64,000 nt of DNA, from assembly GCA_963843795.1 (NCBI GenBank), contig CAWJLW010000010.1, positions 186,001 to 250,000 on the forward strand, read 5' to 3'. Every line of letters starts with the position of its first letter. The stretch's first letter is position 1. This DNA is from an uncultured bacterium (GTDB lineage: Bacteria > Armatimonadota > Abditibacteriia > Abditibacteriales > Abditibacteriaceae). Positions 5,710-44,977 of the stretch are shown piece after piece. The translations under genes were made by a program, and so were the position numbers. Under the pieces are notes generated by a model. That model was not told the origin of the DNA, did no database searches, and was given only the letters and a program-made list of their open reading frames with translations.

Positions 5710-6686
5710 GTCGCGCGCATAATGCGGTCGCGCACGCCTTGCCACGAACTTTCATCGGGCGGCATTTCAATCATGATTTCCTCGCAATGCGCCGCATCTA
5801 ATTCGTGCAGAGATTGGTACAAGAGGCTCGCGTAAATTGAGGCATCGCGTGGCAAAACAATGGCGCGCGTGTGGGCGAAGCCGTCGGCATTTTCTAGCAC
5901 CAGAGCGCCGATGTTGGCGAATTTTCGCTTCTGCAAGTACTTGCGGGCAGCTTCGCGGTTATCGAAACGCAAAGCGCGCGCGCGCGGCGCATAGTGGCGA
6001 TCCATCATGCCGGGCGCGGCGCGCGGCGCTTCATCGTTTTGGTGTTGTGCCTTTTCAATCGGGCCGATGATGCTTTCGATTTGCGCCTGCGAAATTGCGC
6101 CCGCGCGCAACAAAACCGGCGTTTGGCGTGATAAATCAAGAACCGTCGATTCGATGCCAATATTGGCCACGCCGCCATCGAGCAGCAAATCCAAACGCGG
6201 ACCGAGGGCGTTCCAAACGTGCGCGGCGCGCGTGGGCGAAAGTTGCATAAAACGGTTGGCGCTCGGTGCGGCGATGGGAATTTGCGCCGCTCGTAGCAAC
6301 TTTTGCGCGACCGGATGCGCGGGCACTCGCACACCGACAGTTTCCAATCCGGCACTCACAATGGCAGGGACGCACGACGCTTTGGGCAAGACCAGAGTGA
6401 GCGGGCCGGGCCAGAATTGCTCGGCAAGACGCTGCGCTTGCGCGGGCCAATCGGCAAGTACTTGCCGCGCGCTTGCGACATCGGGAAAATGCACGATAAG
6501 CGGATTATAAGCGGGACGTTCTTTGGCCGCGTAAATTTTGGCCACCGCAGTGGCGTCCAAAGCGTGCGCGCCCACTCCGTAAACGGTTTCGGTGGGAAAC
6601 GCCACCAGACCTCCCTCACACAAAATTTGTGCGGCGCGGGCGATATTGGCTTCAGTGGCGGGCACAACGATGGAATCGTGAGTCAT
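5688..6686 (-). CDS. sua5: L-threonylcarbamoyladenylate synthase (Sua5/TsaC with C-terminal Sua5 domain)
   Basis: VAFPTETVYG, KERPAYNPLIVH, AAPSANRF, GIESTVLD, PGMMDRHYAP. Confidence 0.93.
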   Translation of the reverse strand: MTHDSIVVPATEANIARAAQILCEGGLVAFPTETVYGVGAHALDATAVAKIYAAKERPAYNPLIVHFPDVASARQVLADWPAQAQRLAEQFWPGPLTLVLPKASCVPAIVSAGLETVGVRVPAHPVAQKLLRAAQIPIAAPSANRFMQLSPTRAAHVWNALGPRLDLLLDGGVANIGIESTVLDLSRQTPVLLRAGAISQAQIESIIGPIEKAQHQNDEAPRAAPGMMDRHYAPRARALRFDNREAARKYLQKRKFANIGALVLENADGFAHTRAIVLPRDASIYASLLYQSLHELDAAHCEEIMIEMPPDESSWQGVRDRIMRATQSLESP

Positions 6687-6708
6687 GATTTTGGCGCACA
6701 CTCAATTG

Positions 6709-7191
6709 ATGAGCACTGAACGGGACAAGCAAATTCTGACACATTTAGACGAACTGCTGCCGCACGCAGTCGCGTGGGTTCGCGAACAAGAACATGATAT
6801 TTTGCAGCACGGCGTCGCTTTGAATCCCAGAGAAATTCAAATCGCGCAAGCGTTGGGTGTAAAAAACAAGGCGCACGTCCGCTTATTAACAGTTGACGAA
6901 ATGCCGCAACCGCAGCATCCGATTTTACACGAGGCCGCGCAGCACAGCGGATTTTTCGCGCTCGGCACGCAAGGCATGACGCTGGGCGCGGGCATTTTCA
7001 TCGCCCGCGCCGCATGGCGCACGGAAGATTTACTGGCGCACGAACTGGTTCACATCGCGCAGTATGAGCGCCTGGGCATCGAAGAATTTTTGCGACGTTA
7101 TCTCAGCGAATGTCTCACGGTGGGCTACTGGAACTCACCGTTAGAAATGGAGGCGCGTCAAAGAAGTGCCCTTATTTTGCGGCAATTTTAA
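6709..7191 (+). CDS. Hypothetical HExxH protein (DUF4157/zincin-like)
   Basis: GMTLGAGIFI...LLAHELVHIAQYERLG...NSPLEMEAR. Confidence 0.65.
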   Translation: MSTERDKQILTHLDELLPHAVAWVREQEHDILQHGVALNPREIQIAQALGVKNKAHVRLLTVDEMPQPQHPILHEAAQHSGFFALGTQGMTLGAGIFIARAAWRTEDLLAHELVHIAQYERLGIEEFLRRYLSECLTVGYWNSPLEMEARQRSALILRQF

Positions 7192-10100
7192 GCGTTAGGT
7201 GAGCTTTGCGCTTGAACTTCAAAATCTGAGTTTTCATCTTCTGCGCCACGCCGGCGCGCCAGCCAATTAATCGCATCGTCAAACAGCGAATACACAACGG
7301 GCACGGCTAACAAAGTCAGCAGCAACGAAAGGGTTTGACCGCCAAAAATCACCGTACCGATGGCGCGGTTGGTGCCGGAACCGGCCCCGCTCGATAAAAC
7401 CAGCGGCAGCATGCCGGCCACAAAGGCCAGTGTCGTCATCAAAATTGGGCGCAAACGGTCGCGATTGGCCTGAATGATCGCGTCGTAGCGGTTCATACCT
7501 TGAGCGCGCAGTTGATTGGAATGATCGACTTGTAAAATCGCGTTTTTCTTCACCACGCCAAACAAAACCAAAATGCCCAACAGCGAGAAGATGTTCAATG
7601 ATTGGCCGAACAGCCAAAGCGAAAGCAAGGCAAATGGCACCGTTAAAGGAAGAGACGTGAGAATGGTGAGCGGATGAATCCAGCTTTCAAATTGCGCGGC
7701 CAAAATTAAATACATGAAAACCATCGACAGGCCCAGCGCGACCAGAAACGCTTGGTTAGTGCGCTGCTGTTCCAGTGAACTGCCCGAAGCCGAAACTTCG
7801 TAATCCGGCCCCAGATTCAAATTATCGACGATTTTTTCAATCGCCGCGCCAATCGCCGCTTCGCTCGCGCCTTCTTCGACATTGGCCGAAAGCGTGATCT
7901 GGCGACGCCGATTGTAGCGCTCGATAGTGGCCGGGCCACTGGTGCGCTCAAAGCTGACCACGCGTCCCAATTCAACGGTGCGCCCACTGCCATTCGACGG
8001 CGCGGCGCTGACGGCACCGGAACTGATTTCGGGAGGCAGGAAATCGGGGTTGGTCGGCACCGTCAACTGCGCGATGCCTGCTTCGGAAGTGCGGTCGCGC
8101 TCGGGTGCGCGCAGATGAACTTCGTACTGACGTCCGTCTTCGACGTAATCCGTCACGCGATTGCCGCCCACCAGATAGCGCAGAGTGTTTGACAAAACTG
8201 CGGGATCGACGCCCAGTTCGCCTGCCATCACGCGATTGATGCGCACTTTAATTTGCGGCTGCCCCAGCTTCAATGAACTGTCGGCATCGGCCACGCCATC
8301 GACTTTTTCGATCTGCGCCACTGCGCGGTCGGCGCCTTCTTTCAAGCGATTCAGGTTCGGCCCACTGAGAATATATTGAATGCGCCCCGCACCGCCGCCA
8401 CCGATGAGACCGAACGAGTTGATCGGCGAAACGCGCACTTTGGCGTTGCCTTCACGTCCGATTTTGCCCAGAGCCTTGCGCATCTTGTCGATGACTTCGC
8501 TTTGCGAAAGTTCGCGTTTATCGACATCTTTGAGGCGCACATAAATGTTGGCTTCGTTGGAACTGCCACCACCGCCGCCATAAACGCTGCCCGCCGTGTT
8601 CAACAGCGTGTAATCGACTTCCTTGAAGTTGCGCGTCGCCTTATCAACTTTTTGCGCCAATGCGCGTGTCACTTCCAACGCGGTGCCCTGAGGCGCGCGC
8701 AACGAAACCTGTAATTGCGATTCGTCTTCTTCGGGCAAAAAGTTGAACGGCAGCACGCGCAGCCCGAAGGGAATTGTCGCCAAGGCACCGGCACATACTA
8801 AAACAACAACCCAGCGATGCGCCAGACTCCATTTCAGCATCGACACATACGCGCTATCAATCAGACCATAGAAACCACTTTGGCGCGCCGAACTCTGGTT
8901 ATGCTGCGCGGCAAGTACTTGCGGTGCGCTTTTGGTTTCCTCCAGCGGCGCCTTTGATTTTTTGCCTTTGCCCAGCCAACGCGCGGTGAGCATTGGTGTG
9001 AGCGTGAAGGAAACGAACAGCGAAACCAAAATCGCGAACGACATCGTAAGGCCAAACGAAGCCAAAAAGCGGCCCACAATGCCGTTCATAAATGCGACTG
9101 GCAAAAAGACTGCAACCAAAGAAAGCGTGGTCGCCAAAACCGCGAACCCAATTTCGCGAGTGCCTTCAATGGCCGCCTGCATCGGTGGCATTTCTTTTTC
9201 TTCGATGAAACGATAAATATTTTCCAGAACCACAATCGCATCGTCGATCACGATACCCACTGCCAATGTAAGGGCCAAAAGTGTGATAACGTTGAGCGTC
9301 AAGCCCAAAATCCACATCAGGGCGAAAGTGGCGATAAGAGACGTCGGAATGGCAATCGACGCGATGAGCGTGCTGCGCCAGTTCCACAGAAAAAACAAAA
9401 CCACCAGAGAAGCCAGCAGCGAGCCGAGCAAAAGATGTTCTTCAACCGATTCGACTGCGGCACGAATAAAATCGTCCTGTGAACGCACGATGCTGGCATT
9501 GATGCCGGGCGGCGCGGTTTCCTGCGCCTTTTCGACGCGCTGACGCACGTTTTCAATCACTTCCAAGGTATTGAAACCGCTTTGCTTGTAAATCGCCAAT
9601 TGCACTGTCGGCTTGCCGTTAAGTTCTGAAGACGAAGTTTCGACTGCCAGACCATCTTCGACGCGCGCCACATCGCCCAGCCGGATGCGCACGCCGCCGC
9701 CCGAACGCAGCAGAATATCTTCAAACGCTTTCACCGATTTGATGCGACCTTCGACGCGCAGGCTCAGAGTTTCCTTGGGCTGTTCGACCAGACCGCCCGG
9801 AATATCGTTGTTTTGCGCTTGCAGAGCGCTGATTAAATCGGGCACCGCCAAATTGTAAGAGCGCATGCGCTCGGCATCGGGCGTGATATTGATCTGGCGC
9901 TCGCGGTCGCCGCGCAGTTGAACATCGCCCACGCCACCGGCATTTTCCACCATGTTACGCAACGTCACATCGGCATATTTAGTGATCGTGCCAATGGGCT
10001 GCGTGCCCGAAACCGCAATCGACAAAACCGGAATCTGATTGGGATCGAAGCGGCGCACGCTGGGCGGATCGACGTTTTCGGGCAACTGGCCTTGGACGCG

Positions 10101-10442
10101 CCCGATGCGGTCGCGCACTTCCTGCGTGGCGACATCAATATCGGTTTCCAGCGAAAACGTCACGCGCACCGACGAACTGCCTTCGCTCGAACTGGAGCGC
10201 AATTCTTCAATACCGGCGATAGTATTCACAGCTTCTTCGAGCTTGTCGGTGACTTCGACTTCCATCGTTTCAGGCGATGCGCCCGGTAAAGAAGCGCTAA
10301 CCGAAACCGTCGGCAGATCCACTTGTGGAAAGCGGTCGACGCCCAAACGCAAAAAGCCCGCCGTGCCAACGACGAGCAAAACTAAAATTAACACACAAGC
10401 GAAAACGGGGCGGCGCACGCACAATTCGGCTAATTTCTGCAT
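7188..10442 (-). CDS. RND efflux permease (AcrB/AcrD/AcrF family)
   Basis: MQKLAELCVRRPVF, GIVIDDAIVVLENI, GVVKKNAIL, RLRPILMTTLA. Confidence 0.95.
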   Translation of the reverse strand: MQKLAELCVRRPVFACVLILVLLVVGTAGFLRLGVDRFPQVDLPTVSVSASLPGASPETMEVEVTDKLEEAVNTIAGIEELRSSSSEGSSSVRVTFSLETDIDVATQEVRDRIGRVQGQLPENVDPPSVRRFDPNQIPVLSIAVSGTQPIGTITKYADVTLRNMVENAGGVGDVQLRGDRERQINITPDAERMRSYNLAVPDLISALQAQNNDIPGGLVEQPKETLSLRVEGRIKSVKAFEDILLRSGGGVRIRLGDVARVEDGLAVETSSSELNGKPTVQLAIYKQSGFNTLEVIENVRQRVEKAQETAPPGINASIVRSQDDFIRAAVESVEEHLLLGSLLASLVVLFFLWNWRSTLIASIAIPTSLIATFALMWILGLTLNVITLLALTLAVGIVIDDAIVVLENIYRFIEEKEMPPMQAAIEGTREIGFAVLATTLSLVAVFLPVAFMNGIVGRFLASFGLTMSFAILVSLFVSFTLTPMLTARWLGKGKKSKAPLEETKSAPQVLAAQHNQSSARQSGFYGLIDSAYVSMLKWSLAHRWVVVLVCAGALATIPFGLRVLPFNFLPEEDESQLQVSLRAPQGTALEVTRALAQKVDKATRNFKEVDYTLLNTAGSVYGGGGGSSNEANIYVRLKDVDKRELSQSEVIDKMRKALGKIGREGNAKVRVSPINSFGLIGGGGAGRIQYILSGPNLNRLKEGADRAVAQIEKVDGVADADSSLKLGQPQIKVRINRVMAGELGVDPAVLSNTLRYLVGGNRVTDYVEDGRQYEVHLRAPERDRTSEAGIAQLTVPTNPDFLPPEISSGAVSAAPSNGSGRTVELGRVVSFERTSGPATIERYNRRRQITLSANVEEGASEAAIGAAIEKIVDNLNLGPDYEVSASGSSLEQQRTNQAFLVALGLSMVFMYLILAAQFESWIHPLTILTSLPLTVPFALLSLWLFGQSLNIFSLLGILVLFGVVKKNAILQVDHSNQLRAQGMNRYDAIIQANRDRLRPILMTTLAFVAGMLPLVLSSGAGSGTNRAIGTVIFGGQTLSLLLTLLAVPVVYSLFDDAINWLARRRGAEDENSDFEVQAQSSPNA

Positions 10443-10507
10443 AACAATAGGAAAAAACGACCAAACAAGCGGACACAACTTCCGAACCCGCCACAAACAA
10501 AGCAACT

Positions 10508-10546
10508 ATGCCCTGCAAATACTTGCGGCAAGTACTTGCAGGGCAT
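10508..10546. repeat. Hairpin of tandem palindrome copies (one variant)
   Basis: atgccct-gcaaatacttgc-g-gcaagtacttgc-agggcat. Confidence 0.85.
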
Positions 10547-10652
10547 GGTGAATAGTCAATTGGAAACTTTGCTGCTTTTAAAGTTCCAACCAACTTCACC
10601 TCCGGGTTTTAGCTGAGAAAATTCTCAGTTGAATCACAAGTGCATCTCAACT

Positions 10653-11393: not shown

Positions 11394-11397
11394 ACTT

Positions 11398-13037: not shown

Positions 13038-13156
13038 AGGGCGCGGAACTGAAAGTTTGATGCCAAACATCTTGAGGGGCCGGCAAGTTACTCGCGGCAA
13101 GTACTTGCCGGCAATTTTCCAACGGGTTTTTCCCATCGCGGCTATACTCGCAGGCC

Positions 13157-14413: not shown

Positions 14414-14575
14414 TTTCTGGGCGCTGCAAGTACTTGCAGCCCTCTTTCGCAGTTGAGCGGCAACCGCACCGCATCCCAAACCGTCAAAACCAGACGCACG
14501 CGCCTGATGTTGCAGGCAATGGGGAAAACAATGTGGAAAACACGCGTGTAGAAGGTATTATTTTGGAGTCTACCG

Positions 14576-16020: not shown

Positions 16021-16066
16021 AAAACGGCGCTGCAAGTACTTGCGCAAGTACTTGCAGCGCCGTTTT
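16021..16066. terminator. Perfect 46-bp palindrome with two tandem GCAAGTACTTGC copies; probable terminator after ctpA
   Basis: aaaacggcgct-gcaagtacttgc-gcaagtacttgc-agcgccgtttt. Confidence 0.85.
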
Positions 16067-20024: not shown

Positions 20025-21326
20025 TCAATTGTCAAAACGACCGAGTTGCACCACGGTTTCCACATGAGCAGTTTGGGGAAATAAATCCAGCGGCACGACT
20101 TCTTCCACGCGGTAATCCGCGGCCAAATCCGCCACATCGCGCGCCAACGTCGCCGCATCGCACGAAACGTAAACAATTGTTTTGGGCTTCAAACGCTTCA
20201 GTTCGGCGATGCAAGTACTTGCACCGGCGCGTGGCGGGTCGAGAACTACGAGATCGGGCGCCAGAGAAATTTTCTTCAATGCGCGCGCCGCATCACCACT
20301 GACGAACTCCGCCCCCAATTTGTTGCGTCGCGCGTTCAATTTCGCATCACGAATCGCTTGGTGCCCGCTTTCGATTCCCAAGACGCGCGCGCCGCTGCGC
20401 GCCATATCCAAAGCGAACAGGCCCACGCCGCAAAATAAATCCAGCGCGCGCTGCCCGCTTTGCACCCGTGCCAAGCGCCGCACAGTTGCCAAAAGCAGCG
20501 GCGTAATGGAGGAATTGACTTGAAAAAATCCGCCGCCTGTCACGCGCAGTTCTAAACCATCGACAGTTTCTTGGAGCCAATCGCGCCCATCCAAAACGCG
20601 CGCGGACGATTTTTCGCTGTGGCGCAAGACGCCAACACATTGCGGCATTTGAGCACGAAAACTTTTGGCCCAAGCCGTTTCGTCGTTCCAATTCGCAGCC
20701 GAAGTTTGCAACACCAACAGCGAATTTTCCGAACTATCAGCGCGCATCACCGCGCGTTTTACCAAACCAGGCGGTAATGCGGGCAACCTGGCACGCACAA
20801 GTTCCAGAACGCGATTATTGAGCGTGTTTTGAATCGGACAAGTTTCTACCGCCACCAGATCGTGCGAATTGCGCGCGTAAAAACCGATTTGTGGGCGGCA
20901 AGTACTTGCCGCCGAACTTTCAATGGTTTCGACCACGAAATCGGCCTTGTTGCGATAATTGTAGCTCGCGGGCGATGGCTGGCACGGCGCGGTAATTTCT
21001 TCTAAAATTTCGCGTTTGATGTGGCCGATGCGATTCAAGGCGTCGATGACGAAGCCGCGCTTAATTTCCAGCTGCGCTTCATAATTGAGATGCTGCCACT
21101 GACAGCCGCCGCAGCGTCCGAAAATTGGACAGTTGGGCGAGGTGCGCAGCGGGGCAAGTACTTGCAAGTCGAGCAAATGGCCGCGCGCGAAAGTTTTGCG
21201 TTCGTCGTCGATGGCGACGCGGGCCACATCGCCTGGCGCGGCGAACGGCACAAAAGTCACGCGCTCGTTTTCGTCACGCCCGACGGCATCGCCGCCGACT
21301 GCCATGCCGTGAAAAGAAACCTGCAT
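20025..21326 (-). CDS. rlmD: 23S rRNA (uracil-C5)-methyltransferase RlmD/TrmA family
   Basis: TRAM domain, CPIFGRCGGCQWQH, FFQVN, DLFCGVG, LDPPRAG, YVSCD, DLFPQTAHVE. Confidence 0.92.
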   Translation of the reverse strand: MQVSFHGMAVGGDAVGRDENERVTFVPFAAPGDVARVAIDDERKTFARGHLLDLQVLAPLRTSPNCPIFGRCGGCQWQHLNYEAQLEIKRGFVIDALNRIGHIKREILEEITAPCQPSPASYNYRNKADFVVETIESSAASTCRPQIGFYARNSHDLVAVETCPIQNTLNNRVLELVRARLPALPPGLVKRAVMRADSSENSLLVLQTSAANWNDETAWAKSFRAQMPQCVGVLRHSEKSSARVLDGRDWLQETVDGLELRVTGGGFFQVNSSITPLLLATVRRLARVQSGQRALDLFCGVGLFALDMARSGARVLGIESGHQAIRDAKLNARRNKLGAEFVSGDAARALKKISLAPDLVVLDPPRAGASTCIAELKRLKPKTIVYVSCDAATLARDVADLAADYRVEEVVPLDLFPQTAHVETVVQLGRFDN

Positions 21327-21453: not shown

Positions 21454-22602
21454 TCAGCGAATCAAACCCTGCTCGCGCGCCCATTGGTCATAAGCCGAGG
21501 GCGCGATTTCGCTGGGCTTAATTTCACTGCGCCCGCCCCAAAATACGTTGGTATAGCTGATTGGCACGCCGCATTCTTCGAGATGTTTGTCGATGGCATC
21601 TTTGTGGCGCAGCAGCAGATTTTTGTCGGTTCCGTGCGCGACGCCCATGATGTTGACGTTGTTGAATTCCGGCCCACCTTCGCGCCAATACGCGTGCGTC
21701 ATAATGTGAAAACGCCCGACCTGACGGCCCGCGTAAATTTCGCGGCCTTCCGGAACGGCCCAGTGGAATAGCGCATTAAAACGCGTCACGCGCTCGCCGC
21801 TTTGCAAAGTTTTCGCGTGCTCCAAAAAGGTCGCGAAACGCCCGATAACGCTGCGTTCGTCCAAACTGCGCGCAACTTGAAGAAAAGTTTCGTAATCGAC
21901 GCCGGCTTCTTCGGCACGCGCGCGCCAGATTTCGGGCACCAGTTCTTCGGGTTCGAATTCGCGTTTCAACGCCGTCAAAACTTGCCATTCGAGCGCGTCC
22001 AAAGTCGCGACATTCACTTCCAACGCCGTCGCCAGTGCTGCAGTTTTATCACCCGGTGTGAGCACGCGGCGGCGCACATGGCCTACGCCCAACGCGAACA
22101 AGCGCTTGGCGGGCATGATACGAAAATCGGTCGCGCCGGTTTGCTCACACAAAAATTTGCAGTGCGCTTCCATCGAATAGGGCGCGGGCACTTTAAGCGT
22201 TGTCCACAAACGATAGCGCGCGCCTTCAATCGGCGCATCGGTGGTGCGAATCACGACGTGGCCGGAAAACGGGTCTTGCTGGAACATGTAATCGAATGCC
22301 GATTGCAGCTTGTCTTCCGGCACACACCACGCGATCAAAGCGCCCGGCGCGAGGTTGGTGGCGAGAAGCGTTTGGCGAATACGACGAATTGTGCCCGCGA
22401 CTAGCATCGCGCGCAAGCGTTCGATCACGACGTCCAATTCCACGCCGCTCTGGCGCGCAATTTCGCCCAGAGGGTCGACGGTGAAACCGGCGATCTTGTC
22501 TTCGGAAACCGCCAAAATGCGCGCGTTAATCGCGTCATCGGTGCGAATCGAAATTTCGTCCGAGCTTTCTAAAGTGTTTTCGGGTGTGCAAGTACTTGCC
22601 AT
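21454..22602 (-). CDS. Lrp/AsnC-like two-domain protein (siroheme decarboxylase NirDL/AhbAB-like)
   Basis: Probable start MASTCTPE at 22602; EIARQSGVELDVVIERLRAM HTH-like segment repeated in second half; THAYWR...NIMGVAHG. Confidence 0.7.
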   Translation of the reverse strand: MASTCTPENTLESSDEISIRTDDAINARILAVSEDKIAGFTVDPLGEIARQSGVELDVVIERLRAMLVAGTIRRIRQTLLATNLAPGALIAWCVPEDKLQSAFDYMFQQDPFSGHVVIRTTDAPIEGARYRLWTTLKVPAPYSMEAHCKFLCEQTGATDFRIMPAKRLFALGVGHVRRRVLTPGDKTAALATALEVNVATLDALEWQVLTALKREFEPEELVPEIWRARAEEAGVDYETFLQVARSLDERSVIGRFATFLEHAKTLQSGERVTRFNALFHWAVPEGREIYAGRQVGRFHIMTHAYWREGGPEFNNVNIMGVAHGTDKNLLLRHKDAIDKHLEECGVPISYTNVFWGGRSEIKPSEIAPSAYDQWAREQGLIR

Positions 22603-22639: not shown

Positions 22640-23876
22640 TTAAGCGCGTGGCGCACGACGCTGGTCATCGAACGCGCGCCGATTTCCATCGCGGCTTCGT
22701 CGATATTGAATTTGGGATGGTGATGCGGATACGTCGCACCGATGCTCTCGTTGCGCCCGCCCACGAAAAAGTAACAGCCCGGCACGCGCTGTAAAACCAT
22801 CGACATATCTTCGGCGCCCATCGTCGGCGTCCATTCAATGACATTCTCTGCGCCAATCGCCACACCGATGCCGCGCCGCGCAATGGATGTCGCAGTTTCG
22901 TCATTGACGGTTGCCGGATAACCGTCTTCAAAAAAGCACGAGCCAGTCGCGCCAAAAACTTTGGGGCAGCGATTCGATCATTTCGCGAATGCGGCGTTCG
23001 AGTTCGTCGCGCACTTCGCTATCAAAAGCGCGAAACGTGCCTTCCAAGGTCGCTTCGTCGGGAATGACGTTGAACACATCGCCCGCTTTCACGCGCCCGA
23101 TAGTGACCACAGCCGGTTGCAACGGGTTGATGTTGCGCGCGACAATGGTTTGCAAAGCCGTAATCAGATGCGCCGAAACGACGACCGGATCGACGGTTTG
23201 GTGAGGCAGCGCGCCATGACCGCCGCGCCCGAAAATGCGCGCGCGAAACGTGTCGGCTGAGGCCATGACCGGGCCGGGCGCAATCGCGACTTTGCCAACT
23301 TCCACGTCGCTCCAAACGTGCAGCGCGAACGCCATATCGGGCGCGGGATCGTTTAATAACCCATCTTTGATCATGCGTCCCGCGCCCGCGCCACCTTCTT
23401 CGGCGGGCTGAAACATGAAAACGACTGTGCCTTTCCATTCATCGCGCGATTCAGACAACAAGCGCGCCACGCTGAGGCCAATCGCCATGTGCGCATCGTG
23501 GCCGCACGCGTGCATTTTGCCTTTGACGGTCGATTTCCATTCCCAGTCGTTCTGTTCTTCGACCGGCAGCGCGTCCATATCGGCGCGCACCAGAATCACC
23601 GGCCCGTCACCATTGCGCAAAACGCCTTTCACGCCGGTCACACCAACATTTTCCTGCACTTCAATTCCCAGATCGCGCAAGTCGTTGCGCGACGATGCCC
23701 GCCGAGCGCGTTTCTTCGTAGCCCAGTTCGGGATGCGCGTGAAAATCGCGACGCAACGCGATAATATCCTGCTCCCACGGCAAATTGAGCGACGGCTCAA
23801 CAAAACGCTGGCGCAGCTCGCTCAAAGGATCGGCGGCAGATTTGGGCGGCGTTCGCAATTCAAGTGATTGGCTCAT
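22640..23876 (-). CDS. M20-family amidohydrolase (split across frames by probable sequencing indels)
   Basis: RRDFHAHPELGYEE, RADMDALP, MHACGHDAH, FQPAEEG, GRGGHGALPH, MGAEDM, HHHPKFNIDE across three frames. Confidence 0.88.
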
Positions 23877-23993
23877 GGGGGAAAGTATGACAGATGCCGC
23901 AAGTTCGTTTCGTGCGCCGAAAATGAGAAACTACTCCGCAAGTACTTGCCACAGCTTTTGCTTTATTCTTTTCCACTGTATTCTTTTGCAACT

Positions 23994-24904
23994 ATGCGTA
24001 TTGCCAGTCTGATTCCGTCCGGCACCGACATCGCTATCGCGCTCGGTCTGGGCGACAATTTAATCGCCCGCTCGCACGCCTGCGACCATCGCCAAGCCCA
24101 GCATTTGCCAATTATCACACGTAGCATCATCAGCGCCGATTTAACGCCCGCGCAAATCGACGAACAAGTGACCCAAACGATTCAAGATGGCGCGAGCCTG
24201 TATCAAACCAATCGCCAACTTTTGCGCGATTTGCAACCCGATTTGGTGTTCACCCAGGCAATTTGCGACGTGTGCGCTGTCAACGCTTCGACTGCGCGCG
24301 ATGCCGTGCCCAAAGGCGCGAAACTTTTATCTTTGGATGCAACTGATTTCGACGGATTGTGGCGCGACATCTCGCGCGTCGCCGAAGCCGCCGAACGTGC
24401 CCGAACGCGCGCAAGTACTTGCCGACGATTTGCAAGTCGCGTTTAGGGCGCGTCGAGAAATTTGTTGCGGGGAAAGCCGCGCCCGAAAGTGTTGGTTTTG
24501 GAGTGGAGCGAACCGCCATTTCTGGGCGGCCATTGGGTGCCGGAAATTATCGCTCGCGCAGGCGGCCGAACACGTTCCCCACACCGAAAATGCGCCCAGT
24601 CGCCGCGCCGAATGGTCACGAAATTACCGCCTGCGACCCCGATTTCATTTTTCTCGCCCCATGCGGCTACGACCTGGCGCAAACTCTGGAACAAGGTCGC
24701 GACTTGCTGCGCGATGAACCTCGTTTCGCCGCCTTGCGCGCTGTGCGCGAAAAGCGCGTCTGGGCGACAAATGCCACGCATTTGTTTTCGCGCTGCACAC
24801 CCAAAATCGTGCGCGCCGTGGAAATCGCCGCGACAATCTTGCACGATTACACTGGCGCTATCGAAAGCGATGAGGCGCGCAATCTCGCTCAGATGATGCG
24901 GTAA
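23994..24904 (+). CDS. Cobalamin/iron-siderophore ABC substrate-binding-like protein (frameshifted)
   Basis: MRIASLIPSGTDI..RSHACD, QAICDVCAV, LEWSEPPFLGGHWVPE, APCGYDL, FSR across frames. Confidence 0.8.
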
Positions 24905-35323: not shown

Positions 35324-36007
35324 ATGCTTTCTTCAATTTCCAACGCTTCAGACAAATCGACCGCGCTGAGAACCGAAGCCATCGTTTTCGATTTCGACGG
35401 TACACTCGCCGATACTTTGCCCTTAATTACCGCTTCGTGGAACGCCGCCCTGCGCGATTTTCTGCCGCGTCCGCATACCGTCGAAGACGTGGTCGCACGC
35501 TTTGGCCCGACCGAAGAAAATATGCTGCGCGCTCATCTGCACGCTCACGACCAAGCCACAGTCGATGCCGCCATCGAGCGTTATTTCGCGCACTACACCA
35601 GCGCGCACGCTTTGGTGCAGCCGTTCGAGGGCGTAACGGAAATGCTGCATCAAACGCGCGCGCGCGGTTATAAGTGCGGTTTAATGACCGGCAAAGCGCA
35701 CCGTGCCGCGATGATTACCCTGGAACTTTTGGGCTGGCAAGACGAGTTCGAAGTCATCATTACCGGCGACGACATCGCGCGCGCCAAGCCCGACCCTGAA
35801 GGCATTTTTAAAGCCTTGCAAGTACTTGCCACACCGCCCGAACGCGCGATTTATCTTGGCGATATGGAGTTCGATATCGAAGCCGCCCGCGCCGCCGGCT
35901 GCCGCGCCTTTGCCGCGGGCTGGCACGCCCACGACGCCGCCTCTTTGCGCGCTACCCAACCCGATGCATGGCTGGAAAAACCCGAAGATTTGTGGCGTTT
36001 TGTGTAA
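35324..36007 (+). CDS. HAD-superfamily hydrolase
   Basis: FDFDGTLADT, TGK, KPDPEG, GDMEFD. Confidence 0.92.
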   Translation: MLSSISNASDKSTALRTEAIVFDFDGTLADTLPLITASWNAALRDFLPRPHTVEDVVARFGPTEENMLRAHLHAHDQATVDAAIERYFAHYTSAHALVQPFEGVTEMLHQTRARGYKCGLMTGKAHRAAMITLELLGWQDEFEVIITGDDIARAKPDPEGIFKALQVLATPPERAIYLGDMEFDIEAARAAGCRAFAAGWHAHDAASLRATQPDAWLEKPEDLWRFV

Positions 36008-36040
36008 ATTTGTGTAAATCAGGGCGCGAAACCAACCGAA

Positions 36041-36072
36041 AAATCCCGCTGCAAGTACTTGCAGCGGGATTT
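36041..36072. terminator. Bidirectional palindrome-centred terminator between convergent genes
   Basis: aaatcccgct-gcaagtacttgc-agcgggattt. Confidence 0.85.
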
Positions 36073-36128
36073 GTGCTTTCGATGAGGCTTCAGAATGAGA
36101 CTTCAGAATGAAGCTTCACGACGAGCAT

Positions 36129-37462: not shown

Positions 37463-37515
37463 AACCTTTTCCTTGAAGATCAACAATTCACGAATTCCTG
37501 ATGATATCCACTGCA

Positions 37516-39157
37516 TCACGTCCGCACCGCCACCCGATGGACGCGAACGTTTGGGCGTGGTGCGACGGGGTGTTGTGCGAGGGCGTGGTGGAGTGGTGTT
37601 GTGCGACGTGGCGCGGGACGGCTGGGCGTTGATCCGCGCGTGGTCGATTTTCTCTCAACCGGTTGGCTTTCACGTCGCACCGGTCTCGCGGTAGGTCTGG
37701 CCGTTGGCTTTGGTGTCGGTCTGGCCGTCGGTGTCGGTGCGGGCCGTTCGGTTGCCAGCGGCGTAATCGCCGGTTCGGGCATGTTGTTAATTGGGAAGCC
37801 ACTGCCAAACGACGGATCATCCGCGTTATCGTCTTTTTTCGTCCCGCTCGATGTGGGGGCCGAAGTGGATGCGGAAGCCGGCGCGCGAGTTGGTTCGCCC
37901 GACAAGGCTTCGGTCACCGGTGCGCGGGTAACGGTGTTGTCGGTCACAGCATTGGTGGCTCCAGCGCCAGTTCCACCGCGCGATGAGAGGGCGATAAAAA
38001 GCATCACAACCAAAAACGTCAGCGCCGCACCCAGCGCAATTTGGGGCGAAAGCCACGGCGGCGGCCACTGCATTGGTGCTTTGGCAATCGGTGACTTGCG
38101 AGAGTGAACCTTGCGAGAGTGGCGCTTGTGTGGTTGTTGCCTGGGGCACTTCGGAGGTGGGAACAATCAGGGAATTGGTTGGGTTGATGACGCCATTCAC
38201 TGCATCAGGGTGGTCGGCCACGCTGGTTTCGGGCTCTGAGGCGCGAGGTGCGCCTTTGGCAAACGAGGTAAATTCGCCGATGGTCGGCTCTTGCGATAGA
38301 TTTTGGCTGGGCAAAGCGACCACGACTTTCTCGGCTGGCAAGCTGGTCAGTGTTGGCTCGATGCTGGCGCGGAACTCCGCGACCGATTGAAAGCGGTCGG
38401 AAGCTTTTTTGGAAAGCGCTTTGAGGATGGCCGCTTCGATGGCGGGCGGCAGATCCTCGCTCAGTTCGCGCGGCGGGCGCGGCGCCAGTTCGAGATGCGA
38501 GCGCATGATTTCGTAATCGCTCGTCCCCGAAAACGGCACTTTGGCCGTTGTGAGTTCGTGCAGCAGAATTCCCAGCGCATAAATATCGCTGCGCGCGTCC
38601 TGCTCTTCGCCGCGCACCTGTTCGGGCGACATATATTCGAGCGTGCCAATGACTTTGCCGGTTTTGGTCAGATGCTGACCACCCATCACGCGCGCGATGC
38701 CGAAATCGGTGATTTTCACCAGACCTTCGTCGTTCAACATCAAGTTGGCGGGTTTGATGTCGCGGTGAATCACGTTGCGCGCGTGCGCGTGCTCGAAACC
38801 GCGCAGCGCCTGACAAAACCAGTCCAGCGCGGTGCGCAAAGGCAGTTTGCCCTCGCGTTTCAACAATTCTTCGAAAGTCGCGCCCTGCACGAACTCCATC
38901 ACCATGTAATAATCCTGCCCAACTTCGAGAAAGTTGTGCAGAATGGCGATATTGGGATGATTCAAACGCGCCAACGTCACGGCTTCGGAACGGAAACGTT
39001 CGAGCCAACCGGCGTCTTGCGTGGCGAAGCGGTGAAGTACTTTGAGCGCGACTTCGCGTTCGAGCATGGTATCGAGCGCGCGGTAAACTTCGCCCATTCC
39101 GCCCGCGCCCAGCTTGTTCTCGATGCGATATTGGCCAATCGTACTCCCGATCATCAT
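37516..39157 (-). CDS. Membrane Ser/Thr protein kinase (PknB-like; frameshift near 38090)
   Basis: LGAGGMGEVY, VALKVL, HRDIKPANL, DFGIAR, YMSPEQ; TM helix and Pro/Thr/Arg-rich tail in the next frame. Confidence 0.92.
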
Positions 39158-40245
39158 GCCGTTTCCTCCGCCGACAACGCAATTTCTCGCGCCGCTGGCA
39201 ATTCTTTGGTTTCTGGCAATTCCTTGGTTTCGGACAATTCTTTGGTTTCGGGTATCTCAACGTTCGGGGCTTCTTCCACATCCGACGGCTCCGACGCGGA
39301 AACTTCCGGCGTGGAAATTTCTGCCGTAGAAATTTCTTGCTTGGTCAGCTCGCGCGCGTGCAGAATGGCAACGGTGATATTGTCGTAGCCTCCGCGCGCT
39401 TTGGCTTGTTCGACCAAGGTTTCGCAGGCGGCTTGTGGCTCGTGGGCAAGTACTTGCGCGGCGATAAAATCGTCGTCGAGCAGATCGCACAAACCATCCG
39501 AGCACAATAAAAACCGATCATCATCGCGCACGATCATCGCTTCGCTCCAAACCTCGACTTCAACAGTGGGATGCAAACCCAAAGCGCGCGTGATCAGATT
39601 TTTTTCCGGATGATGGCGTGCCTGCTGGGTTGTGAGCGCGCCCTGTCGCACCATTTCCATGACCGCCGAATGATCTTGCGACAATTGATAAATCGCGCCG
39701 CCGCGCACCAAATACAAACGGCTATCTCCGACGTGCGCGGCAAACGCGTGGTGTCCGCGCACCAGAAGCGTCGTGCAGGTCGTGCCCATGCGATGTTGAT
39801 TTTTTTCCGCGCTGGCCGCACTATGAATCGCCGCATTGGCATTTTCCAACGCCGTGCGCAAAAGCTCGGTGGGCGCGTTCAAATATGGGGGCGCTGCCGC
39901 GTAATACTCGCGACACACGGTTTCGACTGCCAGCGCGCTGGCGATTTCGCCACCCGCGTGACCTCCCATGCCATCGGCCACGATTACGAAAACTCCGCGC
40001 TGCGCCCGCTCTGACGCGCTTTCGGGCACAATGGCACGCGCGCTATCTTCGTTGCCTTCGCGCACGCAACCCACATCGGTGTGCAAGCCGATCACGCACT
40101 CGAAAATTTCCTTGTCGGGGAAAATATCATATGGCGAAGAATCGCTTTGAGAAGAATCGAAAGATGGCGCTTCAACGGGCAATGCCTCGAATGCCTCGAA
40201 TGCCTCGTGAGTTTTGACAGCGCGCTTTTTCCACCAATCGAACAT
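39154..40245 (-). CDS. PP2C-family Ser/Thr phosphatase
   Basis: DVGCVREGNED, VADGMGGH, HVGDSRLY, LCSDGL, GYDNIT. Confidence 0.94.
   Translation of the reverse strand: MFDWWKKRAVKTHEAFEAFEALPVEAPSFDSSQSDSSPYDIFPDKEIFECVIGLHTDVGCVREGNEDSARAIVPESASERAQRGVFVIVADGMGGHAGGEIASALAVETVCREYYAAAPPYLNAPTELLRTALENANAAIHSAASAEKNQHRMGTTCTTLLVRGHHAFAAHVGDSRLYLVRGGAIYQLSQDHSAVMEMVRQGALTTQQARHHPEKNLITRALGLHPTVEVEVWSEAMIVRDDDRFLLCSDGLCDLLDDDFIAAQVLAHEPQAACETLVEQAKARGGYDNITVAILHARELTKQEISTAEISTPEVSASEPSDVEEAPNVEIPETKELSETKELPETKELPAAREIALSAEETA
39195..39252. repeat. In-frame 18-bp tandem repeat x3 (PETKEL)
   Basis: ctggcaattc(t/c)ttggttt-type units. Confidence 0.85.
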
Positions 40246-40379
40246 AATGAGCCTTTGTCAAATCGTAGATTTAGGTCATCGAACTCACTTCGCCGTTTTC
40301 AATCCAACGAAATTATCCCAGCAAGTACTTGCGGCAAGTATTTGCAAGCGGGAGCCCTTGGCAAGCTACTGACGGGAAG

Positions 40380-42194
40380 CTACTGCGCGGAATCTTGAGC
40401 GTTTTGATCGCCAGATTTTTCGTCGCCCGATTTGGCATCGCCGCTCGATTTGGCATCATCGCCCGATTCGGTGCTGGTTGCATCGGTACCCATGAGCTTG
40501 AGGCCGTAGCGAATCGGAACAGCGAAGTTCGCGCCTTGCACATCTTTCATTCCCGCGTAATGCACCGCGATGACGCGCCCGCGCAGATCGCACACCGGGC
40601 CACCGCTGTTGCCGGGATTCGTGCCCGCCGTGTGCTGATAAACGTCGCCCGCGATATTGACGTATTTGAGCGGATTGTCGCCGCCCTCGATGACGCGCGC
40701 GATAGTGCCGGTCGTAACGGTGGGTTCGGGCACAAAAATTACTTTGGATTTGTTGCTGCCCGATTGATCGCGCACTGCGGTCACGCCCGCGCCCAGTTCG
40801 CCCGCGAACGGATAACCGATGACGACCATCGATTTGCCCTGCTCAGCTTCTTCAGGCTCAGCGTTCAACTTCACGGCGGGCATTTTCGAGGGCAGATCGA
40901 CTTTAATGAGCGCGACATCGTGTTCATCCGAAGCGCGAATCAAGCGCGCGGTCGTGCTGTTTTTTTCTTTGGGAAAAGTCACTTCGAGATAATCGTTGCG
41001 CCCTTCTAAGGCCTTGCCGGTCAGGCTGCGACGCGAATCGCCATCCAGCGCATCGGCGGGAATCCAGTTGCTGGGGCCCGCATCGACTGTTCCAACAATC
41101 TTGAGCGAAACCTTGCCACCTTCCTGCGTGGGCTGCACCACAACGCCCGCGGGCAACGAAAGCGGCGAATACCACGGCGCGCCCACATGACGATTGGTCA
41201 GAATAAAGCCATCTTCGGTCACCACGAAACCGCTGCCCCCGCCGCTGCTGCCGATGGCTTTGTTGCCCTGCGAATCCAAAGTCAGCCACGGCTGATAGCT
41301 ACCGTCCTGATTCAGCACATAAGCCGCCACGCGCTGCCCTTCTTTGCCCGCCAAGTACTGGTGATAAACGATGCCGCCCGAATCGGTGTCGATGAGCTTC
41401 CAGCTCATTTTGATGAAAACGACACTCGGCACGACCTGCTTGGCGACTTCTGAAGCGGTGAGATAACGGTTCGATTTCTCGTCTTCTATCGACTGCTTGG
41501 TTTCGACGAGCTGATTTTCGGTCGATGCCAGCTTGCCCGCCAAAACTTCTTCCGAAGCGCGATTATTCCACGCCAGAAATCCCACCATCAAAGCTGCCGC
41601 GCACGCTAATCCCGCGCCGCCCCACATCATCGAACTGCGCGTATCCGATTTGGCGCGCGTGATTTCGCGCTCCAGCGTCGCCTTGCCCACCCCTACTTTA
41701 GCGGGCTCGTTCGTAACTGGAGTGGCCGGAACAGCTGGAACAGAAGCAGACGGAACAGCGGCAGAAGCCATGGGAGTTGCGGGCAGGGGCGAGCTTTCGC
41801 GTGTGGAAGGCGCGACAGCACCCACAGCTTCAGTTGCACGCGTCGCGGCGAAAGCGTTGGGACGCGGGTCGAGGTCGAACTGAAATTCCGGGCCGCCCGC
41901 TCCGAACTGCACCACGTCGCCCGGCTGCAAAACGGTTTGACCGCTCACGCGCTGTTTGTTGAGAAAAGTCCCGTTGCGGCTACCCAGATCGTGCAAGAGA
42001 AAACGCGTCGGATCGGCAGAGTCGCGCACGATACGAGCCTGCTGACGACTGACCAAGTCGTCCTGCTGAGGGTCGTAGCGGACATTGGCAGACGGATCGC
42101 GGCCCAGAGTCAGTTCGGAATGTTCGGCGATTAAAAACTCATCGACCTGATCGCTTTTGGAACCACTCAAATGCCTGAGAACAATTCGCTCCAT
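40380..42194 (-). CDS. FHA domain + TM + trypsin-like serine protease
   Basis: LGRDP...VSRQQA...DLGSRNGTFLN (FHA); GSGFVV, TNRHV, DVALIK, PGNSGGP. Confidence 0.92.
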   Translation of the reverse strand: MERIVLRHLSGSKSDQVDEFLIAEHSELTLGRDPSANVRYDPQQDDLVSRQQARIVRDSADPTRFLLHDLGSRNGTFLNKQRVSGQTVLQPGDVVQFGAGGPEFQFDLDPRPNAFAATRATEAVGAVAPSTRESSPLPATPMASAAVPSASVPAVPATPVTNEPAKVGVGKATLEREITRAKSDTRSSMMWGGAGLACAAALMVGFLAWNNRASEEVLAGKLASTENQLVETKQSIEDEKSNRYLTASEVAKQVVPSVVFIKMSWKLIDTDSGGIVYHQYLAGKEGQRVAAYVLNQDGSYQPWLTLDSQGNKAIGSSGGGSGFVVTEDGFILTNRHVGAPWYSPLSLPAGVVVQPTQEGGKVSLKIVGTVDAGPSNWIPADALDGDSRRSLTGKALEGRNDYLEVTFPKEKNSTTARLIRASDEHDVALIKVDLPSKMPAVKLNAEPEEAEQGKSMVVIGYPFAGELGAGVTAVRDQSGSNKSKVIFVPEPTVTTGTIARVIEGGDNPLKYVNIAGDVYQHTAGTNPGNSGGPVCDLRGRVIAVHYAGMKDVQGANFAVPIRYGLKLMGTDATSTESGDDAKSSGDAKSGDEKSGDQNAQDSAQ

Positions 42195-42393
42195 AGCACA
42201 ACTCCTGAGAATCAATTTTTCGCATCAACGCCAGCGCGCTACATTCGGATTTCTGCACTATCACCCGAACATGGCCTTATTATGAACCATACCAACAAGA
42301 AACACAACACATTTTTCAATCGAACAAGTTCACAAGACGCTTTTATCTATCGAATTGCCTGATTTACAAGTGCTGCTCAGCAACAAATCCCAC

Positions 42394-42434
42394 AAAAAAC
42401 AGAGCCATCATCTTTAAAGACGATGGCTCTGTTT
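42394..42434 (-). terminator. Terminator after the wzc-like gene
   Basis: aaacagagccatc...gatggctctgttt stem with A run on plus (U run on minus). Confidence 0.75.
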
Positions 42435-42525
42435 CTCGCGGAAGTCTGGTGTTCAAACTGCGTATCTGGTTCACAGGATGCCAAGCAAAAGCGGGCTGTT
42501 TCTCGCGGAAGTCTGGTGTTCAAAC
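42429..42525. repeat. Two exact 30-bp direct repeats separated by 37 bp
   Basis: ctgtttctcgcggaagtctggtgttcaaac at 42429-42458 and 42496-42525. Confidence 0.9.
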
Positions 42526-44977
42526 ACCTATGGTTCTGCTACTGTCAGTTTTGTCGGCGTCGGTCGCTTCGGCATTATCCATTGATTTCTCATTGGGTGA
42601 TCGCGAGAAGCGTCGTTCTTCATTGTCTTCGTAGCGTCCGTAATAGCCGCTGTAGTAATAGCCACCGTAATCATTGCTGTGCGAAGTTTTGGAATCAATT
42701 TTGTTCAAAGCGATGCCCAGCACCTCGGCGCGCGCCTGAGCTAATAATTCGAACGAGCGCGCAATCGAAGATTTGGCCACGCGTCCCAATTGCATCACAT
42801 ACAAAACGCCATCGACCTTCGACGCAAGTACTTGCGCGTCTGAGGTGGCCAGCAAAGGCGGTGAATCAAAGATAATCACATCGGTTTGTGTCTTCAATTC
42901 TTCCATCACAGCTTCCATCGAAGGCGAATTCAACAATTCGACCGGGTTGGGCGGCAAAATACCAGCCGCCAGAAAGCGCAGGTTATAAATGCCAGTCTCG
43001 TGCAGACAATCGCTGAGCTTCGCCTGTCCAACCAAGATATTGGTCAAGCCCGGCTGAACCGGCACATCAAAAACATCATGTTGACGCGGACGGTGCAAGT
43101 CGGCATCGATCAACACCACTCGCTTGCCATCCAGCGCCATTGCGGCGGCCAAGTTGGAAGCCGTATAACTTTTGCCTTCTTGGGGCACCGAAGAAGTGAC
43201 CAAAATCGTCGCGTGCGGTTTATCCAGAAGCGTGAACTGCACATTCGAACGCAAAACGCGGAATTTTTCCAGCAAATTGCGTTCGTGACCCTGGCGATAG
43301 CCACCAGCCAGAGGATCGCTGACTAGACGGATTGTCATCTTTATCCAATTCGGTAATTAGCACATCGAAGGGCAAGCCTTCATCGTTCGAAACCGGAGCC
43401 GAACCATTGGCACTTAGACCATTGACTCCCGAACCATTAGGAGAACTGCCATTGGCCACCGGCAAGGCGCCTTTTTTCAAAGCTTTGGCCTGAGCATCGC
43501 GCAAGATAACCGGCAAAGATTTGTGCTCGGCAGACATGAGCGGAAAATGTCCCAGAATCGGCACGCCCAGCATCCGACGCACTTCTTCTTCATCGCGGAT
43601 ATGATCGTCCAGCGATTCCTGCAACATCGCCGCACCACACGCCAGCAACAAGCCCAGAGCAATCGACAGAATAATATTGCGCTGCACGTTGGGCGAAATT
43701 TTCACCGCAGGACTGGCGTCTTCAATGACGTTGATAGGATCATTGGCCGCTTCCATCGCTTTTTTGCCGTAGTGACAGATCGTTGACATTTTGCCCCATC
43801 GATAAGACTGTGGCGGCACTGCTTTCGACATCCCGCTGCAATTGAGCTTGTTCGCGCTCAATCGGATTATAGCGACCCAAATCTTTAGCCAAATTATCAG
43901 CACGAACTGATAAAGCCTGCGCATTGGCTTGAGCGGCTCGTAGCGGAGCTTGCGCTTCGGCAATTTTGCCATCGTATTCGACAATAGCCGGATTGGGAAC
44001 CCGAGTTTCGGTTGTGACATCGCGCGGTGTGCGATTCAAGCGCGCTTGCAAATCGGTGATCTGGCGGTCGATCTTACGAATTTCATCGTCAGTGGGCTTG
44101 TACAAAAACAACGAGCTTTGACGCTGCGATTTAAGGTCCGCAATTTTTTGACGAAGCTCTTGAAGCTCTGCCGTGTTGGTCGTCGTGGTGGGCGTGGTAA
44201 TCGTTGCCGGCAATTGCTGACGCGTAGCCACTAACGATTCGAGTTGAGCGCTCAGCCTGTCCACATCGGCCTCAGCACTGCTGACTCCGGCCCGCGCTGC
44301 TGGCAGCGGCTTCGAGATCGCCTGCGCGCTGTGCCGTAGGATCAACAATGTTGGCCTTCTGTTTGAAATTGAGCAGGGCCCGCTCACTGGTTTTTAAACG
44401 GGCGTTCTCTTCTGTCAAACGTTTTTGAGCAAAAGCTAAAGCCGAAGAAACTTCGCGCATGCGATCAGCTCGCAAATCGTTTAGATAAACCCTCGGCACC
44501 GCTTTGAGATACTCGAAAGCTGCGGTTGCGGATTGCGAAACCGTGCTCAACTCAATGACATTGGTGTCTGCCACACGGCGGACTTCCAGAAAAACACTTC
44601 CCGGCTGCACATTAGCATCCTTGGCAGCTTTGGCGGCGATATCGGATGCCCGCAAAATTTCGACTTGCGTTTCCACACGCTGACCACTCGAGGGCAGTAG
44701 CAAGTCTGAAAACGGGTTGGTCGTGTTATTGAGCGCCATCACCGTCACTTTGTTTTCAACCAGGATGCGTGACGTCGAGCGATAAGTTGGCTTGGCCATA
44801 AAGGTCAGCACAGCTCCTAAAGCAACGACAACGATAAACGCTTGAATCGCAATCGCTTTGCGGCGCTTGAGAATCACCAAAAAATCGCGCAAGTGAGGGG
44901 GCTTGTTCGGTGGCGGCCTCATCAGGCATGGCATAAGTCGGGCTATGCGATTCGGAAATATTGGCTAACTGATTCAT
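42520..44977 (-). CDS. wzc: Polysaccharide co-polymerase / tyrosine autokinase (Wzc-like; split across frames)
   Basis: LRDFLVILKRRK + TM (Wzz), coiled coil, second TM, TSSVPQEGKS, IDADLHRP, DSPPLL, C-terminal YGGYYYSGYY cluster. Confidence 0.88.

Follow-up and report, generated by a model that had tools for sequence, protein, structure and literature searches.

The closest described counterparts of the repeat reported here are the highly iterated palindrome HIP1 of cyanobacteria, the DNA uptake sequences (DUS) of Neisseriaceae and the uptake signal sequences (USS) of Pasteurellaceae. HIP1 (GCGATCGC) is an 8-bp palindrome centred on GATC, and HIP1 and the alternative HIPs lie in all three reading frames and in spacers (PMC4390886, PMC5861425), HIP-type palindromes ranging from 300 to 2,700 copies per Mb (PMC4390886, Table 2). 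DUS and USS originate through mutation and recombination; they have an even spread, are rare in acquired genes, fall on variable residues and are used in terminators (PMC2817400), and DUS form dialects around a fixed core (PMC3630211). The subject of this study is a perfect 12-bp palindrome, GCAAGTACTTGC, which recurs in a 64,000-nucleotide stretch (the window) from an uncultured bacterium of the Abditibacteriaceae (Armatimonadota), a placement also given by the names of homologous proteins. An earlier note on this DNA had compared the palindrome with HIP1 and DUS and had claimed that it is written into proteins in all three frames, apparently by substitution rather than insertion. The comparison was apt. 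The system works like HIP1 and DUS/USS yet belongs to neither, and we hold with high confidence that the word is a DNA-level signal that enters proteins via substitution.

The genome to which the window belongs (G000; 4.30 Mb in 11 contigs) contains 2,567 copies of the word. The density of 597 per Mb falls inside the HIP range and, as with HIP1, copies occur in three frames and in spacers; in contrast to the cyanobacterial word, the present one spans 12 bp around GTAC and occurs in another phylum; in G000, both GATC and CGATCG are depleted. In the window, 31 copies (11 coding, 20 intergenic) stand against ca. 0.01 expected from an order-3 Markov model, and only two one-mismatch neighbours were found. 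Genome-wide, one-off variants (most commonly A4G) numbered 506 versus the 2,567 perfect copies. Genes were taken from our own hexamer-model calls (3,546 genes), so that coding counts are approximate: 754 copies were coding, 1,792 (70%) intergenic, and 21 straddled a gene boundary or lay at contig edges. The coding copies read xQVLA (495), xKYLx (144) or ASTC (115) and are spread over 608 genes, which bears out the earlier statement that the motif shapes the proteome, with the qualification that most copies are intergenic. Genes held 0.20 copies/kb, as compared with 1.9/kb in divergent, 3.2/kb in co-directional and 4.5/kb in convergent gaps, and intergenic copies lay a median of 27 bp past a stop codon. 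On the 3.6-Mb contig, 35 of 36 full 100-kb bins held 47–83 copies; the first bin, which holds an island, had 30. The region where the GC skew switches had 55–65 copies per 100 kb. The SlmA binding site GTGAGTACTCAC is likewise a 12-bp palindrome with an AGTACT centre. Unlike the domain-specific SlmA, Noc, MatP and parS sites, the present word occurs in thousands of copies without restriction to, or exclusion from, a chromosome domain, and this uniform spread, the GC-skew switch region included, shows no nucleoid-occlusion pattern.

The peptides encoded by the word, for which the earlier note had proposed a test of excess, are in strong excess. QVLA occurs 566 times in the G000 proteome against 38.7 expected (15-fold; 27–39 in shuffled orders), ASTC 133 times against 4.0 (33-fold) and KYLQ 105 times against 5.1; the excess reported for DUS-encoded tripeptides is only about twofold. 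Synonymous codon choice in these peptides is far from random. CAA GTA CTT GCN accounts for 503 of the 566 QVLA (ca. 0.4% expected for the QVL codons) and the exact 12-mer for 115 of the 133 ASTC (0.2% expected), so that ca. 88% of the two together use the motif's own codons. GTA and CTT are rare in G000, making up 7.6% and 8.8% of their residues' codons, and QVLA codings were perfect in 495 cases and one-off in 53. Upkeep is thus at the DNA level. Other signature peptides are in excess in the aligned orthologues of two relatives, namely RVLD, RVLE, SSTR and EYSN in G009 and KVL, QSTL and KYF in G001.

Substitution and insertion were distinguished by aligning sua5 to 18 orthologues and rlmD to 17, the two genes for which truly repeat-free outgroups were used, and by a genome-wide comparison with 2.0 of the 3.83 Mb of G009, a relative with a dialect of its own (785 pairs of orthologues with a median identity of 61%, holding 180 sites, 155 of them scorable). 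Over ±6 residues, 97 of the 155 sites (63%) were gap-free versus 88% of controls. A gap of at least 3 residues over the motif was seen at 10 sites and a net gain of at least 4 residues at 17; a gain of exactly 4 occurred at 6 sites and at 20 of 2,978 control positions. Only 6 of 22 ASTC-frame sites were gap-free. In a smaller comparison with G001 (0.23 of 3.1 Mb), 10 of 15 G000 sites were gap-free, and in the reciprocal test this held for 195 of 313 sites of G009 and 33 of 43 of G001. Sites favour variable stretches, with a flank identity of 0.43 versus 0.59 and an identity at the motif residues of 0.30 versus 0.61; genes at least 75% identical to their orthologues had a copy density of 0.051/kb, one quarter of the usual. 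The claim of substitution is thus upheld. Substitution is the rule, at tolerant positions, and the sites are enriched in indel-prone stretches; a small minority of insertions, persisting after matching for flank identity, is possible. The earlier remark that copies sit beside conserved motifs applies to DPPRAG-ASTC, which is gap-free, whereas sites overall lie at variable, not conserved, columns. An over-represented, near-perfect word of substitution origin that distorts peptides at poorly conserved residues is what DUS and USS also present. The full G009 dialect stood in the same column at 10 of 162 G000 sites (0.07 expected). Concerted rewriting of inherited sites looked a strong reading of this but lost its support in the same-peptide control for site conservation beyond codon constraint, a HIP1-type trait: the counts were 9/98 versus 5/105 (p = 0.27, significance gone) in a genome set that holds no close pair, and convergence at permissive xVLx peptides explains the shared columns equally well.

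The copies might instead be insertions or footprints of an element of the repetitive extragenic palindrome (REP) or miniature inverted-repeat type, spread by a RAYT, Ssn or transposase. The gains of exactly 4 residues, the general excess of gaps near sites and the tandem and nested copies in spacers would fit, and REP/RAYT and NTS/Ssn systems likewise form intergenic hairpins in hundreds of copies (PMC11893778). Against this stand the gap-free majority of sites and flanks that are unrelated between copies. G000 has one weak Y1_Tnp match (E 4e-7), as compared with 6–8 in the repeat-free G005 and G007, and no short single-domain GIY-YIG protein (its open frames are 450 and 672 aa). Whereas those systems have a 20–40-bp extragenic element, here nothing is conserved past 12–16 bp, the word is abundant in coding DNA via substitution, and no linked nuclease or transposase was seen. 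Element insertion as the source of most copies is refuted, and we regard this explanation as extremely unlikely.

The eleven coding sites named in the earlier note each begin a perfect copy, and the gene labels agree with Pfam. In sua5 (5688–6686, − strand), the copy at 5933–5944 reads KYL at residue 248 and is colinear with 17 of 18 orthologues, G001 having an adjacent 3-residue insertion; that at 6454–6465 (QVLA, residue 74) is gap-free over the motif in 18/18 and represents substitution in a variable helix. The copy at 8911–8922 in the RND transporter gene (7188–10442, −) reads QVLA in a variable loop, and the G009 orthologue carries its own dialect in the same loop. All three copies claimed for rlmD (20025–21326, −) are present: ASTC at 20211–20222 (residue 369) follows DPPRAG and is gap-free against AAC, ASC or ADC of the orthologues, QVLA at 21154–21165 (residue 54) is gap-free in 17/17, and ASTC at 20898–20909 (residue 140) lies in a variable-length loop where substitution and insertion are undecidable. 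At 22588–22599, ASTC forms codons 2–5 directly after the ATG at 22600–22602, in an unconserved N-terminal tail; this gene (21454–22602, −), called Lrp-like before, has AsnC_trans_reg2 and NirdL-like_HTH domains and is of the siroheme-decarboxylase type. The copy at 24411–24422 is present as claimed, and its frame is probably QVLA, as judged indirectly since the periplasmic binding-protein gene (ca. 23994–24904, +) is frameshifted in the assembly. QVLA is also read at 35818–35829 in a HAD hydrolase gene (35324–36007, +), colinear with one distant homologue; at 39446–39457 in a PP2C-type phosphatase gene (39154–40245, −), whose sole homologue (34%) has a 3-residue gap just past the site; and at 42824–42835 in a wzc-like ATPase gene (42520–43338, −), gap-free to AQIAA of the G009 homologue. 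Six of the eleven sites (both in sua5, residues 54 and 369 of rlmD, HAD and wzc) are thus colinear with orthologues, and the other five lie in variable or poorly alignable spots; at none of the eleven was a clean 4-residue insertion seen relative to orthologues.

The DNA around the copies was found to be helically phased. Coding copies showed A+T peaks ca. 9–10, 20 and 30 bp off each edge relative to codon-position baselines (z up to 11), with a period of 10.4–10.7 bp on both sides out to ca. 50 bp, in G000, G009 and G001. The phasing was present in all three frames and around 1,013 non-hairpin intergenic copies, and was absent around QVL, VLA, KY and ST peptides that are coded without the word. 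A helix period of the peptides themselves was rejected as its source, and general genome periodicity was ruled out by ten anchor controls, with a weak echo at GCAA-N4-TTGC and GC-rich anchors. Since the left and right A-tracts and flanks of coding copies are independent, with no covariation, the phasing does not stem from hairpin selection. The flanks thus bear signs of a protein reading duplex DNA. Phased AT tracts are shared with DUS and USS; they were not described in the HIP1 passages covered.

The spacing of the copies is also ordered. Neighbours 18–100 bp apart in G000 (137 pairs) are in phase with the helix (Rayleigh R = 0.35, best period 10–11), and pairs closer than 200 bp in G009 are 3- to 20-fold depleted, with normal frequencies past 500–700 bp. 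Coding density in G000 climbs from 0.085/kb near an intergenic copy to 0.35–0.47/kb at 1.5–3 kb. At gene ends it was 0.131/kb beside a gap with a copy, 0.226/kb beside a gap without one (p = 3.6e-4) and 0.353/kb where there was no gap; the contrast between gaps with and without a copy vanishes in the most codon-typical genes. The fraction of DNA more than 1 kb from a copy was 0.187, below the minimum of 0.212 across 200 random placements. Coding copies, then, fill gaps of ca. 0.5–1.5 kb that lack an intergenic copy, and the spacing saturates; even spacing is a further likeness to DUS and USS. The earlier inference that the motif accumulates by biased mutation, conversion or selection stands overall, pure mutation bias being the weakest of the three in view of the helical phasing of the flanks and the gap-filling by coding copies.

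These data also bear on the possibility that a dimeric protein inside the cell docks on the word and bends or wraps ca. 100 bp there, selection keeping about one site per kb; candidates are a nucleoid protein, a site that recruits gyrase, or a protein recognising hemimethylated GTAC behind the replication fork. The two-fold symmetric flanks with a period of 10.6–10.7 bp, the in-phase neighbours and the peak of density between convergent genes, where positive supercoils collect (4.5/kb versus 1.9 in divergent gaps and 0.2 in coding DNA), agree with such a role, and gap-filling fits it equally well. A gyrase motif shows phased 10-bp variation in G/C content (PMC6379681), and HIP1 has been argued to be under selection with a role in chromosome structure (PMC5861425). 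On the other hand, per-site selection over thousands of sites would be weak against the amino-acid cost, many family members live without the word, and its outer letters change fast among closely related species, which a self barrier would explain more easily than a structural site. No histone fold was found in 31 genomes by a search whose control matched in 3. E. coli gyrase is not known to follow a strict 12-bp consensus. We consider a wrapping site unlikely, though the strongest of the rival readings.

Many intergenic copies in the window make up the apex or an arm of hairpins that are GC-rich and flanked by A/T tails (e.g. 16613, 27952, 31870, 36051 and 50067); these hairpins are predicted from the sequence to be two-way intrinsic terminators. 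The 20 intergenic copies, to which no strand is assigned, span 1006–61422 and start at 1006, 2117, 4401, 10528, 13097, 14426, 16032, 16044, 16613, 18599, 23938, 27952, 28959, 31870, 35227, 36051, 40321, 50067, 54394 and 61411. Tandem, nested and half copies make longer hairpins at 16032–16055, 4401, 10515–10539, 18599, 35227 and 40321, and 85 pairs on the main contig are spaced by less than 50 bp. An RNA-level terminator-loop signal might have been carried over into genes through gene conversion or template switching, as would suit the 70% intergenic share, the median of 27 bp past the stop codon and the 64% of convergent copies that are hairpins with A/T tails. Such hairpins, however, comprise 20% of co-directional, 7% of divergent and only 1% of coding copies; the flanks of coding copies do not covary, non-hairpin sites are phased, and arms are seldom extended in G009, where long open reading frames (ORFs) hold 757 of 1,402 copies. 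A terminator signal as the primary cause is largely refuted and spill-over is very improbable; terminator use of intergenic copies, known also for DUS and USS, is secondary and is weak in G009.

The exact 12-mer is nearly missing from relatives (0–3 copies in 40 of 40 checked). A 16-mer scan of species genomes returned, among the matches listed, 36 single matches in unrelated taxa and no second lineage. Among viral contigs, six had one copy each, and no phage carrying the GCAAGTACTTGC dialect turned up, which is not proof of absence. Members of the family instead carry about eight dialects, each built around GTAC and differing in the outer letters, as DUS dialects surround a fixed core: (C)AAAGTACTTT(G) in G001, where AAGTACTT counts 2,725; TCGAGTACTCGA in G009, G015 and G019, with 1,402 copies in 2.0 Mb of G009; a looser GAGTACTC in G012 (4,733 AGTACT); and an asymmetric TCGACCGTACT in G006, set in inverted pairs. 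Of 80 metagenome loci (L-numbers) that surround the family methyltransferase, seven carried AAAAGTACTTTT, three TCGAGTACTCGA, one CAAGTACTTG and two the asymmetric AAAAGTACGCC, with a few mixed forms. In L246 (11,952 bp) and L244, AAAAGTACGCC occurs as inverted pairs separated by a short GAAT spacer, so that some two helical turns lie between the two GTAC sites, and single units are also present. Thus the words, unlike DUS and USS, are mostly palindromic, only the G006 and L244/L246 dialects being asymmetric, with DUS-like inverted pairs. None of 227 sampled genomes of the phylum outside the family exceeded 1,197 AGTACT. G017 (genus g6) lacks a genome-wide repeat, but AAGTACTT accounts for 59 of its 175 AGTACT, several closely paired; these are possibly remnants or a small REP-like family.

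Sister lineages show the opposite state, a difference from HIP1. All four genomes of genus g5 (G005, G008, G011 and G014) and eight of g2 are nearly purged of GTAC, with CGTACC at 2–55 per strand versus ca. 600–2,200 for the reversed control, and pooled observed/expected ratios (O/E) for GTAC of 0.02 and 0.0 in g5 and g2 loci, respectively. In G005, there is 1 AGTACT and 2–4 CGTACC per strand versus ca. 1,900 for the control; whole genomes here are 3–6 Mb. This purge in g5 and eight g2 genomes, where no R.PabI-like gene was found, is extreme.

As HIP1 has a core tetramer served by a conserved orphan adenine methyltransferase, along with lineage variants, so G000 encodes a single PF01555 methyltransferase (C6:2517365-2518135, 256 aa, DPPY type, beta-class), beside which no restriction partner was found, the neighbours being unrelated. 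Orthologues were present in 21 of 26 family relatives, and the cultured member Abditibacterium utsteinense encodes the enzyme. At nine of the 80 metagenome loci, an R.PabI-like gene adjoins the homologue (two matches are contig-end fragments), and PF09522 was confirmed in three of five R.PabI-like ORFs examined. Apparently complete PabI-type pairs lie at L297:9274-10759, L289:1092-2572 and L286:9264-10759 (also in L295, L301, L311 and L278), on environmental metagenome contigs of 37–69% GC, several with GTAC at 0–10% of expectation. GTAC is the target of PabI systems, which methylate it to GTm6AC and whose hosts avoid the tetramer (PMC10273834). Since the G000 enzyme is 57–62% identical to three homologues beside R.PabI genes, it is likely GTAC-specific and the core likely GTm6AC. 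In the 53 loci outside the dialect clade (three duplicate loci dropped), GTAC was the most depleted of 256 tetramers (O/E 0.35). Dialect-bearing loci fell in one 26-row clade of a quick tree (SH-aLRT 97), which includes loci without an evident repeat. The methyltransferase family and GTAC avoidance are thus shared with PabI/HpyAXII restriction-modification systems; here, however, no R.PabI-like gene was found beside the G000 enzyme and some lineages hoard the target. R.PabI gave no match in G000 by local hidden Markov model or tblastn, nor in any of 31 class genomes, purging ones included, in a search that had no positive control genome. The three least-avoiding g2 genomes, which may be one clade, have no methyltransferase orthologue. 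The PabI-type enzyme, the lack of any C5 methyltransferase found in G000, the 70% intergenic share and the terminator use separate the system from HIP1, and a core that is a predicted methylation site separates it from DUS and USS.

A methyltransferase site could also be extended into a longer palindrome by a ratchet of methyl-directed mismatch repair with no reader of the full word, as in Elhai's model of HIP1. The orphan enzyme for the central tetramer suits this model, MutL was found in 5/5 genomes, and the plateau that the model predicts, about one site in 1,000 nt (PMC4390886), is as seen; MutH and NucS were not found, in searches whose controls did match. A 4-bp enzyme, however, cannot specify four more letters per side or dialects there, AT phasing to 50 bp is not predicted, one-off variants are not confined to the outermost position, and relatives with the same enzyme purge GTAC. 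The ratchet appears improbable.

We tentatively favour, as somewhat short of probable, a protein-read duplex tag, likely methylated, that spreads by biased natural transformation. The methyltransferase would mark the GTAC core as GTm6AC, and a bending protein would read the word on double-stranded DNA as 'self'. Uptake or recombination would favour fragments with a better copy, so that the word spreads; point substitution at tolerant positions is mostly how it has entered proteins, and intergenic copies were later built into terminator hairpins in the species of G000. We infer that the reader and the uptake or recombination step probably exist. Methylated HIP1 raises transformation up to 100-fold (bioRxiv 10.1101/2024.09.10.611283), and a role as an uptake signal has been proposed for it (PMC13756078). 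Bent AT tracts are also required by USS, whose effect extends over ca. 600 bp (PMC7811141). G000 has ComEC, ComEA and DprA genes and 34 prepilin-like proteins by pattern.

Several observations weigh against the self tag. ComEC and DprA, and in G005 ComEA, also occur in a GTAC-purging genome without the repeat, so that competence genes do not discriminate. No protein that would read the word was found: the DUS receptor domain ComP_DUS (PF16732) was present in 0/5 genomes and a DpnI-type reader gave no match, although no control genome matched in either search. Symmetric phasing to ca. 50 bp exceeds a pilin footprint and recalls a wrapping enzyme, and DUS and USS are non-palindromic (PMC2817400). 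Coding–coding pairs in G000 are mildly clumped (1.2–1.7 times null) rather than repelled, and intergenic copies cluster as phased pairs. Genomes that lack the repeat retain the methyltransferase too, and GTAC is avoided in G016 and G025 though no orthologue was detected in them.

Rarity in acquired DNA is shared with DUS and USS. The two largest copy-free stretches in G000 are 26-kb islands with insertion sequence (IS)-like ORFs, and the final 23 kb of contig C6 (GC 67%, zero copies) are foreign DNA or a mis-joined end. In the window, 42836–61410 has two copies only in 18.5 kb of capsule-type and large secreted-protein genes, which is consistent with recently acquired DNA. Within it, ORFs at 60251–61370 (+), which we take to be IS3-like transposase, end just before the hairpin at 61411; ORFs resembling them also sit in the largest copy-free islands. 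The genes for an M20 amidohydrolase (22700–23900, −) and the binding protein (23994–24904, +) are each broken across three frames. Apparent frameshifts in 13 of 206 long orthologous G000 genes suggest assembly indel errors rather than decay. A presumed carbamoyltransferase-like gene at 61449–63175 (−), assigned from its N-terminus, is called in three overlapping pieces and probably has further frameshifts.

No description of the 12-mer, its dialects or an Armatimonad palindromic motif was found in the literature covered, which took in few subscription journals and no supplements. What HIP1 does has been an open question for 30 years, and few families are known to have uptake-type words. This lineage is an independent case that joins both feature sets, a palindrome with an orphan methyltransferase on the one side and dialects, phased flanks and terminator use on the other, and in it a DNA-level force lifts single tetrapeptides 15- to 33-fold across a proteome. 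With about eight dialects and close repeat-free relatives, the reader gene can be sought by phylogenetic profiling, and uptake, structure and repair models become separable; the species-diagnostic words are usable for binning such uncultured bacteria. It is conceivable, if on the unlikely side, that a methyltransferase remaining from a PabI base-excision restriction system and a co-evolving reader of the methylated core and species-specific outer letters on bendable DNA form a self-tagging system independent of those in cyanobacteria, Neisseriaceae and Pasteurellaceae, biased transformation having written the word into one gene in six. A single family displays both end states, GTAC hoarded in dialects or purged ca. 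100-fold; if the reading is true, HIP1 and DUS would be united as one kind of process, and there would be natural plus and minus lineages in which to find the reader.

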